A DNA stretch of 64,000 bases from Candidatus Latescibacterota bacterium (GTDB lineage Bacteria; Latescibacterota; UBA2968; GCA-2709665): the NCBI GenBank assembly GCA_965219995.1, contig CBDCOX010000002.1:4768001-4832000 (forward strand). The letters run 5' to 3'. The notes beneath the pieces are model-generated. The model was not told the origin of the DNA. It saw only the letters and a program-made list of their open reading frames with translations, and did not search any database. Positions 18,441 to 57,691 of the stretch are shown here, one piece after another. A program made the position numbers and the translations under genes. The number at the start of each line of letters is the position of its first letter. Within the stretch, counting starts at the first letter, position 1.

Positions 18441-18537
18441 TGTTGTCCCTTACGTTTCAGGGTGGTTCGGAAAACCTTAAGCTGTCCGAAGGTTGTCTCG
18501 GTAACGGTCCTTTCCCGTGCGAGAGTGATCCTGAATA

Positions 18538-18760
18538 TTAACCTTGATTCGTCATTATTCGGGGACGTTAATTCGAATATGTGCAAGTGAATAAAGGCGA
18601 TTTAACTGCTGATTTCTATGATGCTTCAGGTCACTGGACGTGAACGGAAAAAATGTCCTTCCGGACGACCTCTTCGGCGCGTTTCGCAGCGATACCCTTT
18701 GTGCCTTTTTGTGCTTTTTGTGGCCAATTTAACGGTTGTCTTTTTTCGAATTGAGGTTAA
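18538..18760. mobile_element. MITE copy 1 (TTAA-flanked)
   Basis: TTAA|CCTTGATTCG...CGAATTGAGG|TTAA imperfect inverted ends. The first 140 bp match 54808-54947 at 137 positions. Confidence 0.75.
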
Positions 18761-51107: not shown

Positions 51108-51851
51108 TCAATCGAGGGGATTGTCGAGGGTCCATTTGAGGACGGTATCGAGGCCGGCGAGATGCGCCGCGGTTCGCTGCGCCATCGGCCAGTCCGTGGG
51201 CGTCTCGAAGATCAGAACGTGGTCCGCGTGGTAATGATGTACGTACGGGACGATCCCGCCGATCCCCCACGCGGGATCGACTTTGTAGACCCCGCGGGAA
51301 ACCGGAATGTCGTTCTCGTCCTCCGTATCCGGATCGATAGGACCCACCTGCTCGACTTGGCGAACGACGTCCGGCCCCGCGTACCGGTCATCTCGCCGGA
51401 CTTCATACATGTAGAATCCGGCGGCCTCCCAGTCTTCGTGGAAATCCACGTATACGTCGAATCGCTCTCCCTTCAACATTCGCCGGCCGATTTCGCCTTC
51501 GGGAACACCGGACTCGGAGAACGACCGGTTGATGTCCTGACCCTTGCTGTTTTCCCGCTTGTTGTGGACGTACCCCCAGGGATTGACACACGGCAGAATC
51601 AGGAACACGAAATCCTCCAGCAGGTCCGCCGGGTCCCGTTCGAGGAATGCAAGGACGGCCTCCGGCCCCGCCGGTTCGTCACCGTGGACCCCGCCGGAGA
51701 GAAGCACCCGCCTCCTGCCGCGCGCGTCGCCGCCCAACCGGATGCAATGGATCGGATAATCGTCCACGTATCCCGCCGTCGCCATCTCCATGTCGGCGAG
51801 ATCAAGCGACTCCAGACGTTGTGTCAATCCATCGAAATCATGGCCTGACAT
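51108..51851 (-). CDS. M14 metallocarboxypeptidase / succinylglutamate desuccinylase-like protein
   Basis: GVHGDE, NPWG, DINRSF, DFHED, FETP. Start at ATG 51851 preferred; the track starts at 51905. Confidence 0.85.
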   Translation of the reverse strand: MSGHDFDGLTQRLESLDLADMEMATAGYVDDYPIHCIRLGGDARGRRRVLLSGGVHGDEPAGPEAVLAFLERDPADLLEDFVFLILPCVNPWGYVHNKRENSKGQDINRSFSESGVPEGEIGRRMLKGERFDVYVDFHEDWEAAGFYMYEVRRDDRYAGPDVVRQVEQVGPIDPDTEDENDIPVSRGVYKVDPAWGIGGIVPYVHHYHADHVLIFETPTDWPMAQRTAAHLAGLDTVLKWTLDNPLD

Positions 51852-51946
51852 CTTTACAACTTCCGTGTTTTCTGGCGTGGCTTCGCTATGCTCAGCGGCG
51901 ACCAAATAGGTGGAAATGAACGGGCGAGCACATTTGATGGTTCAAT

Positions 51947-52030
51947 CACTCCCCCTAGAGGGGCAGTCGCAGAAGCCGAGCCGTCCCCTGAGCTTGTCGA
52001 AGGGCCGGCGACGGCTGATCCGGTGGGGGG
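51947..52030. repeat. Palindromic repeat carrying an inserted CCCTGAGCTTGTCGAAGGG unit
   Basis: CACTCCCCCTAGAGGGG...GCCGAGCCGTC[CCCTGAGCTTGTCGAAGGG]CCGGCGACGGC...GGTGGGGGG. Confidence 0.6.
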
Positions 52031-52114
52031 ATTTCAATGCCTCACCATATGCAAGCAGCAGGATTGAACATCTACACATTTTGACCTGAAGTCTTACTGT
52101 AAGGTCTAAAATGT

Positions 52115-53815
52115 TCAGAGAAGCGTTCGATAGCGATCGAGTGCCACGTGTTTCATGGTCCCGACGAGATGCTTCGATACCATCCGAAAGGCACTATCCA
52201 GACCCTTCGCATATTCCAGGTCCACGATGGCGTTTCCGGATGCTTGGATTTTCCTCCGGGTGGGATTCTTGTAATTGTTGGACAGCTCGACCAATTCATG
52301 AATTCGGGTCCGATCCGAGATAATGATTGGCGCGCAGCATTCGATTGCTCTACCCAGCATCAACGTCGCCAGACGCGACGAATCCGCAGGAAGTTCGTCC
52401 CACACATTCCAGATGATCGGTTGGCAGTCTGCCTGTTTCGCGCGGTCGATCACGCCAAAACACGCGGCTGCATCCAGAATACGATCATTTGGCACAATTC
52501 CGACGTAAACTGATCCGTGGACAGTTTCCACATCACATCCGGTTGCATCCACTGCAACCCATCCCGACCGACTCAGGACTGCCGGATGTTCGTCGATTTG
52601 TCGAACGTGGATTGGCATCTTTGCATTTGCGTTACGTGGATTCTGTAGTCTTGCTTTCGGCAGGTCATCGGCCCGTGGAACCCGATCCCACTCCAATTCT
52701 CCGCCAAGTAAACCCGTATCGAGATCTACAATGTAGATCGTCTCCGATTCCGTGCATTTCGACAATGGAAGTGAATTGCTGGTACCTGCCTTTCTCGCTT
52801 TAAGTTCATTGCCGTCTGGAGAAAACGCAAACGGATGAGTTCTGGTCGTCTTTTGCTTATTGCAATGCAGCGTACACAGTGAGAACATCCGATTCTCTAC
52901 CGCTCTTAGACGAAGAATGGACGACCATTTGATTTCAGAGACATTGTCGTAGCTTGGATTAATCCATATCCGCGCACCGCGTTTTGCTAGAAAACGTGGC
53001 AGAAGACCCAAATATTGGTCGTGACAGATCGTCGTACCAGCCGTCACGCCGGCCAAGTCGAAAGTCGGAAGCATCGAGTTCGGTCTCCAGGCGGGCCTCT
53101 CAAAAGCAACTGCGCATTCCGTCGAATGTTTTACATATATCCGTGAATGCGATCTATCTGGATTCACACGTAACAGGACCTGCCAGGTGCGGCCAGTAGA
53201 GTCGACATTATTGTCGGTCGCGCCGACGAGCAATCGGGCCTCCAGATCTGCAGCGAGTTTTTTCAGTGAGTTGATTCGTTTGGAATCGGACGCGTTAATG
53301 TATCCTTCCGGAAAGAGAACAAAGTCGACGTTTTCGCCTGCAAAGGAGGCGAGGGTAGGAATGACGGGCATTTGCGCATTGTCTCCGCGAGGCACGATCC
53401 CGAACAGCGCGCTGCGGTTTACCTGAGGAAATACAAGTGCCACTCGTAGTACGGAAGCGTTTCGAGCCGCTGACAGTTGTCTTTTCTCTATCGTTTGGCT
53501 CTCCCGAAATGGCTTCTTACCCGGCATGCAATAACCGATACTGCCAATGCTGCCGCCGCATTTGCAGTGAATAACATCGAAGCCAAGTGCGCTGAGAAAG
53601 CCGTTGGACTCAGCACCTCCTGAGAATTCGTATGAAGGTAGAAACTGACCTTTACGAACGTGGTGAGCCACTGCAATGGCGTACTTAGGCGGAAAATGAC
53701 AGCCATCCTTCACCAGGCAGTAGACCCGCGCTTTCCTGTTCGCTGGAACACCGTCACGCCTGATGCGCCGAATTGCCTCCATCAAGTCTTGTTTTGTAAT
53801 GTAAGACGGGATCAT
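52115..53815 (-). CDS. Carbon-nitrogen hydrolase (nitrilase-fold) protein fused to an N-terminal restriction-enzyme-type head domain
   Basis: Triad motifs FPEG, YVKH and ICHD; N-terminal IP..IT...L..AI..I...GVP...FPPKY.I..A......L....FSGG.E.N.FL..LGF.V pattern. Confidence 0.75.
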   Translation of the reverse strand: MIPSYITKQDLMEAIRRIRRDGVPANRKARVYCLVKDGCHFPPKYAIAVAHHVRKGQFLPSYEFSGGAESNGFLSALGFDVIHCKCGGSIGSIGYCMPGKKPFRESQTIEKRQLSAARNASVLRVALVFPQVNRSALFGIVPRGDNAQMPVIPTLASFAGENVDFVLFPEGYINASDSKRINSLKKLAADLEARLLVGATDNNVDSTGRTWQVLLRVNPDRSHSRIYVKHSTECAVAFERPAWRPNSMLPTFDLAGVTAGTTICHDQYLGLLPRFLAKRGARIWINPSYDNVSEIKWSSILRLRAVENRMFSLCTLHCNKQKTTRTHPFAFSPDGNELKARKAGTSNSLPLSKCTESETIYIVDLDTGLLGGELEWDRVPRADDLPKARLQNPRNANAKMPIHVRQIDEHPAVLSRSGWVAVDATGCDVETVHGSVYVGIVPNDRILDAAACFGVIDRAKQADCQPIIWNVWDELPADSSRLATLMLGRAIECCAPIIISDRTRIHELVELSNNYKNPTRRKIQASGNAIVDLEYAKGLDSAFRMVSKHLVGTMKHVALDRYRTLL

Positions 53816-53970
53816 AATTGATTTAGCTATTGTGTTTTCCCGATTGGGACGAGCGTGCGCTTTGTCGCTAGCGTTGAGTCGGGTGTTACGGGCTGAATTC
53901 TAGCTGATTGGTCAGCCACACGATATTACCGGGGATGGAAATTCGCCATATGCTCATTCCTCCCCACCAG

Positions 53971-54789
53971 TTATGATTCTTGTACCCTGTACCGTATCGC
54001 GTGGTAGTCGTAGTCGCTCGTGACGGGCACGGGTTTTCCGTCCAGGAAGGCCCATCGCCCCACGTCGCACGCGGATGCGCGGACGAACCCGTTGATGTAC
54101 GATCGCCGGGGACGGTCGGTCGTATTCGGCGACGAGCCGTGGACCGTGTAGGACGTGAACATCATCACGTCGCCCGGCAGGGCCTCGCAGGGCACCGCGG
54201 AAGAGACGTCCACCTGCGATTCGACGCTTCCCTTCGCGTAGCGTTTCACCCTCAGGTTGCCCAGCTTGTGGCTTCCCGGGATGACGTGCAGACAACCGTT
54301 CGCGACGGTCGCCGGGTCCACCACGACGATCGTCTGCACATAGTTGTTTGCCTGATCGCGAAACGCGGGCGTGGGACGTACGTCCTGGTGCCACGGAAAT
54401 TCGATTTTCCCGCCCGGCATCTTGAAGTTGATCTGATTGATGAACTGCTTCAACGTCGTTCCAATGAGGGGCGCCAGAAGCGCGGGAAACTTCGGACTGT
54501 TGCGAATCTCCTCGAAGGCGGGATGAACCAGCGCGGGCCACTGGACCTTGCGCAGATATCGTACCGCGTCCGGCCCGGTCATCGGACCGGGTGTCTGCAG
54601 GTGAATATGCACGTCGCGCCGCCTGCCATTCAGGATTTCGTCCGGAAGGTCCCTCCTGGACGCCAGTTCGAGGATATATTCGTAGCCCTCGCGCAGTCGT
54701 GCGATCTCATCCCGCCCGAATACGCCCCGCGCCACGTGATAACCCTGTTCCCGGAAGGCTTCGATGTCTTTCCTGTTGAGCGTCGTCAT
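53971..54789 (-). CDS. Phytanoyl-CoA dioxygenase (PhyH) family 2OG-Fe(II) enzyme
   Basis: F.EQGY, PWHQD, NGCLHVIPGSH, HGS.PN.T..PRR. Confidence 0.9.
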   Translation of the reverse strand: MTTLNRKDIEAFREQGYHVARGVFGRDEIARLREGYEYILELASRRDLPDEILNGRRRDVHIHLQTPGPMTGPDAVRYLRKVQWPALVHPAFEEIRNSPKFPALLAPLIGTTLKQFINQINFKMPGGKIEFPWHQDVRPTPAFRDQANNYVQTIVVVDPATVANGCLHVIPGSHKLGNLRVKRYAKGSVESQVDVSSAVPCEALPGDVMMFTSYTVHGSSPNTTDRPRRSYINGFVRASACDVGRWAFLDGKPVPVTSDYDYHAIRYRVQES

Positions 54790-54807: not shown

Positions 54808-55071
54808 TTAACCTTGATTCGTCATTATTCGGGGACGTTAATTCGAATATGTGCAAGTGAATAAAGGCGATTTAACTGCTGATTTCTATGATGCTTCCGG
54901 TCACTGGACGTGAAAGGAAAAAATGTCCTTCCGGACGACCTTTTCGGTCCGGTGAGGAAAGAACTGCAGGGTCACCGCCTTATGACACACGCCGCTTTGC
55001 ACGGATGCTTTTTGTGTCTTTTGTGCTTTTTGTGGCCATTTTTCGGTGTTCTTTTTTCACATTGAGGTTAA
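54808..55071. mobile_element. MITE copy 2 (TTAA-flanked)
   Basis: TTAA|CCTTGAT...ATTGAGG|TTAA; 137/140 identity to the left part of copy 1, and shares TTTTGTGCTTTTTGTGGCCA near the right end. Confidence 0.75.
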
Positions 55072-55101: not shown

Positions 55102-55956
55102 CTATTCCAGTTCCGGCAGGTCAGCCTGGTCGATGAGAACCCTGATCGAGCGTGGACGACGCGCTACCCGTGAGATGAAGCCCTGCTCTTCCAATCGCTT
55201 AAGCATGCTGTTTACGGTTGGAGGCGTAACGCCGAAATAACGCTGTATATCGGCATGGGCGGGCGGAATACCGTTCACCTTGGTGTAGTAATGGATAAAC
55301 GCCAGGTATTGTCCCTGCTTGTAGGTATAGGAATCTGCTACCACGGAATCGTAGAACGCGTCCATGTCGAATTCGGACAGGTACCCGTTGACAAGATCGA
55401 TCGGGAAGTACTCGGGGTCGAAATCGCCGCCATTCCAGTCGATGGTCGCGGAGTGCTCCGGGTGATCGCCGTCCGCCAGGGCCTTGAGGAATTCCGCATA
55501 TCCAGGGCTCCCGCCGACATTCTCGGGCGGACACGATCGCTCACCCGCGAGACACCTGGGTTTGAACTCGTCCGTGTCGGCTTCTTCGATCGCCTCTACC
55601 CTTACCAGGTGTACCCAACTGTCTCCGAGATCGTATTCATAGTGAAACTCGACGCCGACAAACGGGGCGGCCTGCTCGAGCGTGAACAGTTCTTCATCCT
55701 GCAGGTCTTCGCTAAACTCGTCGAACCCCAGGTCGTCCATTCCGTAGGAGGAGTCGCCGATGCGAAACTCATGCGCATGGGAGTTCGTCCACCCCATCAC
55801 GATTTGAAACAACACGTGGAGGTCGCCCAGCGAACTCTCCCCGTCAACGAGGACGCGTCTCCAGATCGGCGGCTCGATGTTCAGCATGGTAATCTTGAGT
55901 TGGTAGATCATGCAGACTCCTCCCGCTTCTTTCTCAGTTTTATTCCTTCGCGCCAT
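55102..55956 (-). CDS. pRiA4b ORF-3 family domain fused to a C-terminal winged-HTH (LexA/MarR-like)
   Basis: YQLKITM..IEPPIWRR, GWTNSHAHEF, YEYDLGDSW, CPPENVGG.PGY; then KQGQYLAFI...FGVTPPTV..ML..LE..GFI.R.....RSI. Confidence 0.85.
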   Translation of the reverse strand: MARRNKTEKEAGGVCMIYQLKITMLNIEPPIWRRVLVDGESSLGDLHVLFQIVMGWTNSHAHEFRIGDSSYGMDDLGFDEFSEDLQDEELFTLEQAAPFVGVEFHYEYDLGDSWVHLVRVEAIEEADTDEFKPRCLAGERSCPPENVGGSPGYAEFLKALADGDHPEHSATIDWNGGDFDPEYFPIDLVNGYLSEFDMDAFYDSVVADSYTYKQGQYLAFIHYYTKVNGIPPAHADIQRYFGVTPPTVNSMLKRLEEQGFISRVARRPRSIRVLIDQADLPELE

Positions 55957-57691
55957 ACCGCCTTAGCAGTGCGCCGACGTCCGCTTCCTTCGTTTCGAGA
56001 CGGGCGTATTCCTTGTACCCCTGCGGTTTCTTGCTCCAGGCCAGAGGCGTCGCCCATGGCGCCCCGGCCAGATTCGGATCGGCGCCCGCTTCCAGCATGA
56101 ACCTGGCGAGTTCGGGCCACTCGAAACGTACCGCCATAGCGAGCGGCGACGATTGTCTCTCTCCGCCAAGTACGTTCAAATCAGCCCCACTGTCGATCAG
56201 CTTCTCCGCGAACGTGATTCGATCCTGCTCACCCACGTGCCAGGTAATCTCCGCGGTCCAGTGTAGCGGCGTGAGGCCGCCCTTCTTCTCGCGGGCGTTC
56301 GGGTCGAATCCGCGATCCAGGAGAAGCTCGAAGCAGGAGTAGAAGTGTTCGGCACGGGCATTTCCCGGATTGCCCGGGCACCGCAGCCGCCACATCCGCA
56401 TGGCCAGACACAACACGTCGTGCATTTCGCTCTCCGAAAAACCCGGATTCCGTGAAAGACAGACTGCCACCAGGTCCGGATGCCCGCCATGGACGGCTCC
56501 CTTCAGGACCTCCTTTGCACACGATGGATCGGAACTTACGAGCGCGGCATCGACGGAGACATTGTCGCTGTTCGCGGCGTAGAATCCTGGAGAGGCCCCG
56601 TCGTCGAACCCGGGGAATGCCCCATGTCGCAACAGCAGTTTCTCCATCGCGTCGTTCCCGTTCGCGATCGCCCAGTTCAAGGCGTTGCCGGACGCATCCA
56701 TCACGGTATGCGCCGATGCCCCGTGCTCCAGGAGCAGCACTGCCATCTCCAGATCGTCATTGAGAGCCGCGGCGTGCAGCGGCGCGCCTCGTTCGGCCAC
56801 GGGGTAGCCTTCGTACTTGTCATACGGCGTATCCGGGTCCGCACCCCGTTCCAGGAGGAGGCGCACCACCTCGAGGTGTCCCTTGTCGGCGGCAATCGAG
56901 ATCGGATACGCGTCCATCCCGGGATAGTTCCGGGCACAGTCGTTCACGGCTTCGGGATCGGCATCCAGAATTCTCCGAGCCCCGTCGACGTCGCCGATGG
57001 CGCAGGCAACCCACAGGTCGTATTCGGCGCCGCGTCCCAGCAGAATTCCGCCGATTACCGGCCACAGGGGGCTTGGCGGCGGGTCCCACCCGCGTTTGGG
57101 CCGCGGCCCGAGCGCAAGGTGGACGGGCTTCTTCCCGCGTGCGTTCGACCGATTCGGGTCGGCGCCTCGATCCAGCAACTCCACAACGCCGTCGACGTGG
57201 TGGTTCTCCACGGCTACGTGCAGCGCCGAATCGCCACTCCCGTTCACCGAGAGAACCCCCGGCGGGTCCGCATCGAGCAGTTCCCTCATGGCGTCGATAT
57301 CCCGCCTCCCGGCGGCCTGGCAAAGCAGGATTCCCGACTCCGTCTCTCCCGAGTGCCCGGACCGCCACGCTTCCATCGCATCGGCAACTTCGGCATGCCC
57401 GTGGTGCCGGGCCATGTCGATCGCGGACACGCGCTCCCGGTACGTTATCCGGGTCGGGCTGGCGCCGGCCTCCAGGAGCAGCCTGACCACCTCCCGGCGT
57501 CCCTCGCGCGCCGCGAGGTGGATGGCCTGATAGCCCTGTGGACCGTCCCGACGCGCAAGCTCGGGTTTCTTCACCAGGATGGACCGGACGCGGTCCACGT
57601 CGCCTTCGCGCGCCGCCTTACAGATTTCCGCGACGCCGGCGGATTCATTGTCCCGGGCCGGCCCATTCCTCCGTAGCGTTCTCTTTGCCAT
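55940..57691 (-). CDS. Ankyrin repeat protein
   Basis: Many ankyrin repeats (AIHLAAREG..EVVRLLLEAGA, SALHVAV, PLHAAA, TPLHW, SPLAMAV, TPLAW). Confidence 0.92.
   Translation of the reverse strand: MAKRTLRRNGPARDNESAGVAEICKAAREGDVDRVRSILVKKPELARRDGPQGYQAIHLAAREGRREVVRLLLEAGASPTRITYRERVSAIDMARHHGHAEVADAMEAWRSGHSGETESGILLCQAAGRRDIDAMRELLDADPPGVLSVNGSGDSALHVAVENHHVDGVVELLDRGADPNRSNARGKKPVHLALGPRPKRGWDPPPSPLWPVIGGILLGRGAEYDLWVACAIGDVDGARRILDADPEAVNDCARNYPGMDAYPISIAADKGHLEVVRLLLERGADPDTPYDKYEGYPVAERGAPLHAAALNDDLEMAVLLLEHGASAHTVMDASGNALNWAIANGNDAMEKLLLRHGAFPGFDDGASPGFYAANSDNVSVDAALVSSDPSCAKEVLKGAVHGGHPDLVAVCLSRNPGFSESEMHDVLCLAMRMWRLRCPGNPGNARAEHFYSCFELLLDRGFDPNAREKKGGLTPLHWTAEITWHVGEQDRITFAEKLIDSGADLNVLGGERQSSPLAMAVRFEWPELARFMLEAGADPNLAGAPWATPLAWSKKPQGYKEYARLETKEADVGALLRRYGAKE

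Follow-up and report, generated by a model that had tools for sequence, protein, structure and literature searches.

A 64,000-nucleotide stretch of the genome of a Candidatus Latescibacterota bacterium (assembly GCA_965219995.1, contig CBDCOX010000002.1, positions 4,768,001-4,832,000 of the forward strand; below, the window, with positions counted from its first letter) contains a gene for a 566-residue protein in which a small head domain of the type seen in the restriction enzyme ScoMcrA is joined to a nitrilase-superfamily unit. Judged by alignment of its relatives, this protein is a nuclease-less, in-frame deletion allele of a family of proteins of about 760 residues, and the nuclease-like domain that it lacks has been lost several times in that family. 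The best reading of the family, to which we give an even chance of being right, is that it represents a candidate restriction-like conflict (defence) gene; its head and its nuclease type are those of modification-dependent restriction enzymes.

The open reading frame proposed in a first-pass annotation of the window is present as described, on the minus strand at 52115-53815 with an ATG start, and contains all of the motifs quoted for it: FPPKYAIAVA at residue 41, FSGGAESNGFLSALGFDVI at residue 64, FPEG at residue 168, YVKH at residue 227 and ICHD at residue 263. Its parts are as follows.

52115..53815, minus strand: whole gene, 566 codons and a stop (stop codon at 52115-52117, ATG start; 100% self-match in its own genome).
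53552..53815, minus strand: ScoMcrA_N-type head, residues 1-88, ending in the invariant C84-x-C86-G-G (PF26345, AlphaFold2 model, Foldseek).
53462..53551, minus strand: linker, residues 89-118, with the in-frame deletion junction (alignment A1 and junction comparison).
52685..53461, minus strand: catalytic nitrilase-superfamily domain, residues 119-377 (PF00795 and triad alignment).
53306-53308, 53129-53131 and 53024-53026, minus strand: codons of the triad residues E170, K229 and C264, respectively.
52118..52684, minus strand: degenerate second nitrilase-like domain, residues 378-566 (model, Foldseek and predicted packing).

The protein is a short form of a longer family

The fusion is not a one-off: in a profile-free search of 1.84 billion representative sequences, 970 relatives reach E<=1e-3, of which 253 pass 1e-10 and 50 pass 1e-30. 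The majority of the family are about 760 residues long and carry an extra domain of about 200 residues, positioned after the invariant C-x-C-G-G that closes the head and before the nitrilase (alignment A1). When 126 close relatives are sorted by motif, 110 possess both the head and the extra domain, and nine, the window protein among them, possess the head only (the short forms). Five of the remainder have the extra domain with no recognisable head motif, and two have neither.

The extra domain is related to DUF7255 (PF23913): each of the 46 inserts extracted from genomic loci matches that family at E<=0.1, with a best value of 2e-6, and the first insert member scores 23 bits, under the cut-off of 27. 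These loci come from a distribution scan of one genome per species, and DUF7255 is present in 46 of the 58 related loci that it covers. In the Protein Data Bank (PDB), the best match of the insert profile is AbaSI (4par_B, E=0.01) over AbaSI residues 30-90, with the invariant C-D-...-E-F-D-E-x-Q-H of the insert aligned to T-D-...-E-V-D-E-G-H-H of AbaSI. The Atlas likewise places the insert with DUF7255 clusters (0.95) and points weakly (0.81) to 'AbaSI family restriction endonuclease, PvuRts1I-like_N'. We take the AbaSI N-terminal domain to be the Vsr-like nuclease of a restriction enzyme that depends on 5-hydroxymethylcytosine.

Both the family alignment (A1) and the comparison of junctions show that this nuclease domain is absent from the window protein. 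A DUF7255-like domain is also absent from the remainder of its 98.6%-complete genome, in which 29 candidates were scored, and the window protein therefore works without that nuclease. As a control, the same model detects the domain in four of five other genomes, with E-values from 1e-89 to 1e-105, and the one without it, G002, likewise has a short form. A genome-wide search for the head finds a single copy, that of the 566-residue gene. No modified-base reader (SRA, EVE/PUA, SBD, winged helix or DUF3427) is detected by Pfam in the window protein (P0001) or in the long forms.

The short state has arisen repeatedly. On a tree of 74 rows built from the nitrilase and C-terminal columns only (the N-terminally truncated P0014, P0017 and P0091 were left out), it requires seven changes, at least five of which are forced by well-supported branches, and the nine short forms have six different junction sequences. 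The alleles are probably mosaic, because synonymous divergence (dS) differs up to 3-fold between the domains of a single pair: for L003 the nitrilase has a dS of 0.55 and the head 1.18, and for L002 the nitrilase has 1.67 and the C-terminal domain 0.57. Such recombination may inflate the count of independent losses of the nuclease domain.

Four combinations of modules are found, namely head with nuclease and nitrilase, head with nitrilase, head with nuclease alone, and the nitrilase pair alone. That all four occur suggests that the two halves of the protein work separably.

Two further observations concern the long forms and their kin. The start of the long-form insert (for example, L001:10286-10400) contains a H-x-E-R-C-x-x-C-K...LERIYG segment that is weakly similar (E=0.014-0.25) to CopA metal-binding domains of the CxxC (HMA) type, and this segment may form a metal site with the C-x-C of the head. 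A large sister family of about 580-600 residues (P0303, P0320, P0324 and relatives; alignment A9) has the head and DUF7255 followed by a different domain of about 300 residues, in which FLITCGGF, GCHD and HHPHTT are conserved and for which there are no matches in Pfam, PADLOC or the PDB.

The head domain resembles that of ScoMcrA

The N-terminal module is assigned to PF26345 (named ScoMcrA_N in the Atlas) in precomputed annotation of the window protein and of most of the 120 relatives listed. An AlphaFold2 model of the head (predicted local distance difference test, pLDDT, 90.3; 25 sequences) has chain B of ScoMcrA (5zmm_B) as its first-ranked Foldseek match in the PDB, with E=1.3e-2, prob 1.00, TMq 0.63 and 84 aligned columns at 25% identity. 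Three more chains of 5zmm (A, D and E) are also matched, and all matches to other structures have prob <=0.05. This fold evidence is marginal when taken alone, as there are no Foldseek matches at E<=0.001, and the profile of the sister family with the same head also has ScoMcrA as its top PDB match (5zmm_A residues 4-95, E=0.027).

Sequence comparison with the PDB gives one chance ribosomal match only for the head (E=0.65), and ScoMcrA is not recovered with a profile of the whole family (A2). The N-terminal 105 residues and the C-terminal pieces have no matches at E<=10 in a Pfam set that does not include PF26345, and the best match to the head in a viral structure library has E=0.91 and prob 0.06. 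With PF26345 assigned and 5zmm the only credible fold match in the PDB, the first-pass proposal of a ScoMcrA-like head stands.

That proposal also held that such heads are normally attached to HNH or McrB-type proteins, and the partners of the head agree with this. They were collected with the head alignment, searched among longer proteins (158 proteins at E<=1e-3), in place of a region-limited homologue search that gave only 38 candidates. In ten head-bearing proteins the Pfam partners are NucS_C/PDDEXK_4, DUF3427 (once with NOV_C), AAA_5 in two proteins, EVE with HNH_2, and DUF7255 in two proteins, and two of the ten have no further Pfam family. We take the AAA_5 partners to be of the McrB type. 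One head-bearing protein matches the PADLOC candidate family PDC-M57B. In the accessible part of one report, fusions of HNH or PD-(D/E)XK nucleases to PUA/EVE or DUF3427 are the domain arrangements by which modification-dependent restriction enzymes were sought (PMC6765204).

An intact nitrilase and a degenerate nitrilase-like domain

The Pfam family CN_hydrolase (PF00795) matches residues 163-337 with E=1.4e-11 and 44.7 bits, against a cut-off of 23.2. E170 (FPEG), K229 (YVKH) and C264 (ICHD) are invariant in all 12 family members of alignment A1, which bears out the C-N hydrolase domain with a full set of catalytic motifs that had been read from the gene. In a 13-row alignment that includes stand-alone relatives (A6), the lysine is invariant and the glutamate and cysteine are nearly so. 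C264 lines up with the GICYD stretch of mouse Nit2. K229 is the putative catalytic lysine, an assignment that rests on its motif and its invariance.

The C-terminal region of about 180 residues, previously described as of no recognised type, instead has the structural relationships of a nitrilase. Its model (pLDDT 93.4; 41 sequences) gives Foldseek matches in the PDB that, among those listed, are all nitrilase-superfamily structures, the best being N-carbamoylputrescine amidohydrolase (5h8i_E, E=2.2e-4, prob 0.99). Six matches have E<=0.001, and the fold match is partial (TMq 0.33-0.39). The domain lacks the E-K-C triad and contains a second copy of an 'RA[VI]E' helix motif (GRAIEC, residue 488), in which R489 and E492 are invariant in 41 sequences, together with the conserved tail residues Y562, R563 and L565.

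When folded as two chains, the C-terminal and catalytic domains are predicted to associate with an ipSAE of 0.93, compared with 0.01 for the best of three controls. This mark is attained by 58 of 80 solved complexes and by 2 of 110 mismatched pairs, and in the present case contact agreement between three runs is at least 94% and partner pLDDT at least 88. The C-terminal domain is predicted to pack on catalytic-domain residues 230-307. The tightest predicted contacts are between the equivalent 'RA[VI]E' helices of the two domains, 299-307 (LRLRAVEN) and 484-492 (LMLGRAIE), and the conserved tail (residues 554-566) is placed against residues 230-239 and 268-275, beside K229 and C264. The two halves are one chain, and the score may reflect likeness to solved nitrilase dimers; it is not proof of binding. 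From these models we infer that a single chain could be a pseudo-dimeric amidase complete in itself, with one active site.

The nearest matches of the nitrilase are Nit2 and other metabolic enzymes, and all NCBIfam matches fall far under their cut-offs (the best, lnt, has 33.5 bits against 132.9). A link to the nitrilases of the DRT1 anti-phage reverse transcriptases, which the first-pass annotation had raised, is not supported: a DRT1-type nitrilase is rejected as far as profile similarity tells, with no PADLOC families matched at E<=1.

Nitrilase pairs also exist as stand-alone proteins of about 420 residues that are 20-34% identical to the window protein. A closer subset of these comes from five metagenome loci, whose neighbours (DUF7096, DUF7343/7345, TFIIB and a Y-family polymerase) give no functional hint. 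Two of the three that were scanned for neighbours (L081 and L082) are divergent beside a DUF7096 gene, on contigs that look haloarchaeal (TFIIB, DUF7343/7345).

The short form is maintained by selection

Selection appears to maintain the head-nitrilase half by itself. The long forms have 97 positions with conservation of at least 97%; the window allele retains 96 of them, and the sole deviation is in the junction region; the long forms themselves deviate at a median of one of these positions. Relative to six same-genus copies, the ratio of non-synonymous to synonymous divergence (dN/dS) is 0.20-0.27 over the whole gene, 0.12-0.19 in the nitrilase, 0.14-0.38 in the head and 0.20-0.29 in the C-terminal domain. 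The values for the neighbouring HAD (0.14-0.22) and PRiA4-like (0.15-0.30) genes are similar, and those for the PhyH gene are lower (0.08-0.12). A second protein with the same junction, P0002, is 75% identical to the window protein and full length, indicating that this divergence arose after the deletion without a break in the frame.

These results bear on whether the short allele might instead be a functionless remnant, the first decay step of a dispensable or toxic gene. A whole domain has been lost, the short forms have longer mean terminal branches, and the family contains many pseudogene copies, all of which would fit such a remnant. We nevertheless judge it highly improbable, given that the near-invariant positions are kept with a single deviation at the junction, that dN/dS is like that of the HAD and PRiA4-like neighbours, that the 566-codon frame is intact, and that P0002 has remained full length at its present divergence.

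Filled and empty sites in the genus

The gene lies in a cassette that is present in some genomes of the genus and precisely missing in others. The cassette and the genes on its two sides are as follows.

51861..53987, no strand assigned: 2127-bp single-gene cassette, present or absent (blastn alignment to G010 and G001, in which the site is empty and the spacer is 28-29 bp).
53971-54789: PhyH-like gene flanking the 566-residue gene.
51108-51905: M14/AstE-like gene flanking the 566-residue gene.

Strong matches to the gene (E<=1e-184) are found in 10 of 15 genomes of the genus, including that of the window, and in none of seven genomes from other genera of the same family. Elsewhere in the order there are one long form (G047) and one 335-residue open reading frame with only the head and DUF7255 (G043). 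A raw tally of 29 of 61 genomes takes in weak matches (E about 1e-4) to ordinary nitrilases. In all five empty genomes of the genus (G001, G007, G009, G010 and G011) the PhyH-like and M14/AstE-like genes are 0-34 bp apart. Filled and empty alleles occur together in one metagenome run (X5), in which a contig joins position 51860 to position 53988 through 28 other letters at depth 7.2 (the empty allele), and an identical 1842-nt piece of the gene is present at depth 2. The run with the identical piece has a different sample and study code.

Several further alleles occupy the same slot in the genus. In addition to the long form there are two short kinds (566 and 551 residues), one split gene and one N-terminally truncated gene (L008/G004). 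The split gene (L004, G008:C1:1059569-1063435) is interrupted by an insertion of about 1.5 kb between the insert and nitrilase domains and has one in-frame stop.

The composition of the gene is foreign to its surroundings. As had been noted, it is AT-richer than its neighbours: 26 of the 60 letters at 52801-52860 are G or C, its G+C fraction is 0.517 compared with 0.615 and 0.596 in the 10-kb flanks, and its third-position G+C (GC3) is 0.53 compared with 0.70-0.78 in six neighbouring genes. The genus copies (L001-L008 and L030) have G+C fractions of 0.51-0.57, compared with 0.59-0.61 in their flanks, despite flank-like synonymous divergence. Among same-genus copies the gene and its flanks have equal dS (0.70-1.23 and 0.60-1.15, respectively), indicating that acquisition in the genus is old and that the gene is a long resident. 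The suggestion that the gene was horizontally acquired is thus supported by its foreign composition and single-gene mobility, and a recent arrival in the genus is contradicted by the equal dS.

PhyH identity to the window is 94% and 90% in the empty genomes G010 and G001, and 87-89% in filled genomes. The simplest cause of the patchy presence is homologous recombination that swaps filled and empty alleles. A different account would make the cassette a selfish homing-type gene: the head and the Vsr-like nuclease of the long form would cut an empty target, repair would copy the cassette in, the nitrilase would be cargo or a benefit to the host, and the short allele would be a post-invasion form with a decayed nuclease. 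Decay of the nuclease after invasion is part of the life cycle of homing endonuclease genes. Such a gene would explain the exact insertion of a single gene between genes that are otherwise almost adjacent, the joint presence of both alleles in one run, and the distribution in which the nearest genomes by PhyH (G010 and G001) are empty and more distant ones (87-88%) are filled. It would also fit the repeated nuclease loss and the 23 of 58 copies that are broken, as well as a cassette that carries no integrase or transposase.

We consider homing unlikely all the same. Target duplications, terminal repeats and conserved flanks were sought, and there is no clear duplication at the junctions and flank likeness within the genus only. 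A single conserved target site is unsupported, as insertion contexts differ by lineage and no flank is common outside the genus, unlike the sites of a site-specific homing enzyme. The nitrilase unit of 450 residues contains the most strongly conserved part of the protein and is kept upon loss of the nuclease, making it hard to see as cargo, and the patchiness requires no nuclease if filled and empty alleles are exchanged by ordinary homologous recombination. No known homing-endonuclease fold is detected, in that Pfam finds no such family in the window protein or in the long forms.

Occurrence across phyla and genomic neighbours

The 58 loci of the distribution scan carry more than 10 phylum labels, taken as deposited, and are 38-75% identical. 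They include Latescibacterota, Gemmatimonadota, several orders of the Acidobacteriota, Nitrospira, Alpha- and Gammaproteobacteria, Dadabacteria, Thermodesulfobacteriota, Rhodothermaceae and, among the archaea, Nitrosopumilus and Aenigmatarchaeota. Two records labelled 'Gemmatimonadota' share the synteny of the window, and one of them (L002) shares a flank match with the same-genus genome G006. Thirty-three copies are intact and long, two are intact and short, and 23 are disrupted or truncated (10 by in-frame stops), although some of the frameshifts may stem from faulty assembly.

A coral-metagenome run and a sponge-metagenome run each contain near-identical pieces of the gene (share 0.33 in both). 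Many of the related metagenome-assembled genomes have names that are presumably those of sponge or coral symbionts; a literature check on the symbiont genus names together with sponge found nothing.

Outside the synteny group of the genus, no neighbour family recurs in more than a handful of the 58 loci. The observation that the gene stands alone is therefore upheld, with no conserved neighbours outside the genus. The 84 nearest large open reading frames beside 43 non-syntenic loci include DruA, Dsr1, ThsA/ThsB, type II and IIG methyltransferases, Mrr_cat, SIR2_2, PDC-S11/S01/M50B, two integrases, IS66, IS240, a resolvase and TraL. The presence of these defence and mobile genes among the neighbours is suggestive only.

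The occurrence of the family in sponge and coral material raises the possibility of a metabolic amidase or nitrilase that acts on an amide or nitrile of the host, the N-terminal domains being regulatory or incidental. The coral- and sponge-metagenome pieces, the intact triad, the metabolic nature of the nearest solved relatives (Nit2 and N-carbamoylputrescine amidohydrolase) and the PhyH, M14/AstE-like and HAD neighbours in the genus would all be expected of such an enzyme. Use of host nitriles is proposed for sponge symbionts in the accessible part of a report that concerns nitA, not this family (PMC11812461). We hold a metabolic role to be unlikely. The enzyme unit is fused to domains found otherwise with nucleases, EVE and AAA_5, most members also have the nuclease-like domain, and no metabolic neighbour is conserved over the 58 loci. 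In addition, the gene is missing from 5 of 15 genus genomes, 40% of copies are broken, and its GC3 is foreign.

The same distribution argues against a house-keeping DNA-modification or repair factor that works on the cell's own DNA, for example by maturing or removing a host-made, amide-bearing base modification. The class of Vsr-like nucleases does include a repair enzyme. However, no modification-gene partners are conserved at the 58 loci, and the patchiness within one genus and the frequent disruption are poorly compatible with house-keeping, which we regard as very improbable indeed.

A candidate restriction-like conflict gene

If the family is a restriction-like conflict gene, the head would dock the protein on DNA, and the nitrilase unit would hydrolyse a C-N bond, either in an amide- or nitrile-bearing DNA modification or, as has been suggested for the DRT1 effector, in a small molecule that is essential. 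The nitrilase unit could thus be a sensor or an effector. In full-length relatives the nuclease would then cut DNA. In the window allele, only a head-guided amidase activity could remain, and it would be this activity that selection still maintains.

In a more specific version, the nitrilase cysteine would attack hypermodified bases with amide or nitrile groups in foreign DNA, either reading them through a covalent intermediate or stripping a protective group, after which full-length forms would cut and nuclease-less alleles would erase or trap on their own. Bases open to nitrilase chemistry include 7-amido- and 7-cyano-7-deazaguanine and carbamoylmethyl-adenine. The lead for this version is that the nitrilase pair sits where, as we assume, AbaSI carries its base reader. 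We rate it as quite unlikely.

A number of results weigh against a defence function. The window protein has no nuclease, nor does its genome have a DUF7255 domain, and it cannot itself be a restriction endonuclease. Docking of the head on DNA is an assumption: the accessible text on ScoMcrA describes the head there as small, flexibly attached and of unknown function (PMC6224610). PADLOC-DB v2 gives no matches for the window protein, the long P0005 or the stand-alone P0166, and nine of ten head-bearing or related proteins have none either. There is no relative in 50,697 phage records, none among 22 pattern matches in IMG/VR, and the plasmids give only two generic single-domain matches. The survey of neighbours is a raw tally with no background control, and most of the genes in it are ordinary (for example, sulfatases and AddB). 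In the genus, the gene lies in the same orientation within a metabolic-looking row of PhyH, M14/AstE-like and HAD genes, and its synonymous divergence matches that of its flanks, hence a long residence. Finally, the terminal branches of the short forms are longer than those overall (median 0.23 compared with 0.12), which could mean relaxed constraint; the window protein's own terminal branch is ordinary, at 0.14.

With these points counted, the gene is still a credible candidate for an anti-virus or selfish element in microbes of sponges and corals. The family is abundant and moves as one gene between marine-holobiont bacteria and archaea, and its natural series of alleles is a ready-made domain-deletion experiment. 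Were it a defence gene, it would offer a tractable single-gene system for finding the substrate of an immune nitrilase.

Surroundings of the cassette

Two features lie at the 3' side of the gene.

52071..52119 (core 52076-52114), minus strand: hairpin spanning the stop codon, not of the canonical intrinsic-terminator type (dG -14.7 kcal/mol, z=-2.1).
51950..52030, no strand assigned: GC-rich, partly palindromic repeat resembling repetitive extragenic palindromic (REP) elements, about 50-90 bp, in the 3' flank of the cassette (65 blastn matches in the genome).

The gene had been described as ending in its own hairpin. A modest hairpin is indeed present at about 52071-52119, with 7 of 200 shuffled sequences folding equally well, but it is without a U-tract, and a scan for terminators gave none on the minus strand. 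A scan for sigma-70-like promoters also found no sites; such a scan is uninformative for the Latescibacterota. The depth of the metagenome contig climbs about 50-fold at the REP-like repeat.

A second, AT-richer repeat family of about 103 bp is present upstream of the PhyH-like gene (54808-54910; 38 blastn matches in the genome), and a copy with 96% identity occurs elsewhere in the window, at 18529-18640. Beyond it, the minus strand encodes a 284-residue protein (55102-55956) composed of PRiA4_ORF3 (E=2.8e-57) and a LexA/MarR-type winged helix, a gene whose position beside the cassette slot is conserved within the genus. Next in coordinate order is a 583-residue protein (55940-57691, minus strand) that consists almost entirely of ankyrin repeats (Ank_2, E=2.9e-42). 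Ankyrin-repeat proteins are of a eukaryote-like type that is enriched in sponge symbionts.

Comparison with known systems

The first-pass annotation knew of no description of this architecture, and literature searched by title and abstract start gives none, although a mention in a supplementary table is possible. No paper was found under the terms PF26345 or DUF7255 in that literature. The domains are all of known kinds; what is undescribed is their combination and its biology. New here are the nuclease-less allele with its repeated origin, the predicted pseudo-dimer, the empty-site polymorphism and the genome-wide absence of the nuclease module. The family is a second lineage, unrelated to DRT1, that couples an intact nitrilase to restriction-type DNA modules.

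With ScoMcrA, the phosphorothioate-dependent type IV enzyme of Streptomyces coelicolor (5zmm), the window protein has the small N-terminal head in common. Unlike ScoMcrA, it possesses no SBD, SRA or HNH domain, and its remainder is a tandem nitrilase unit. The DUF7255 domain of the long relatives is best matched by residues 30-90 of AbaSI, and both the long relatives and AbaSI carry a further module C-terminal of the nuclease. However, the match to AbaSI has only E=0.01 and is weak, the further module of the long relatives is a nitrilase pair and not an SRA-like reader, and the window protein lacks the nuclease altogether.

Nit2, yeast Nit3 and N-carbamoylputrescine amidohydrolase are the best sequence and fold matches of the catalytic and C-terminal domains; the E-K-C triad is common to these enzymes and the catalytic domain. 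The similarity is distant (E about 1e-4 to 1e-6), and these metabolic enzymes have neither the tandem arrangement nor N-terminal fusions.

The closest parallel in immunity is DRT1/UG5 class-3, in which a nitrilase with an intact active site likewise forms part of a single-gene, immunity-type protein. The accessible part of one report calls nitrilase domains rare in immunity and describes the DRT1 nitrilase as the effector, which needs oligomeric contacts, receives a C-terminal lid from the neighbouring protomer and has a substrate that is unknown (PMC13275509); the UG5 RT-nitrilase module is reported to defend in the accessible part of another (PMC13436386). The window protein differs from DRT1 in having no reverse transcriptase (Pfam) and no PADLOC DRT match, and its partner is intramolecular instead of being supplied by a filament. 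Within that single chain, the fused pseudo-partner and C-terminal tail are predicted to take a structural role similar to that of the neighbouring protomer and its lid in DRT1.

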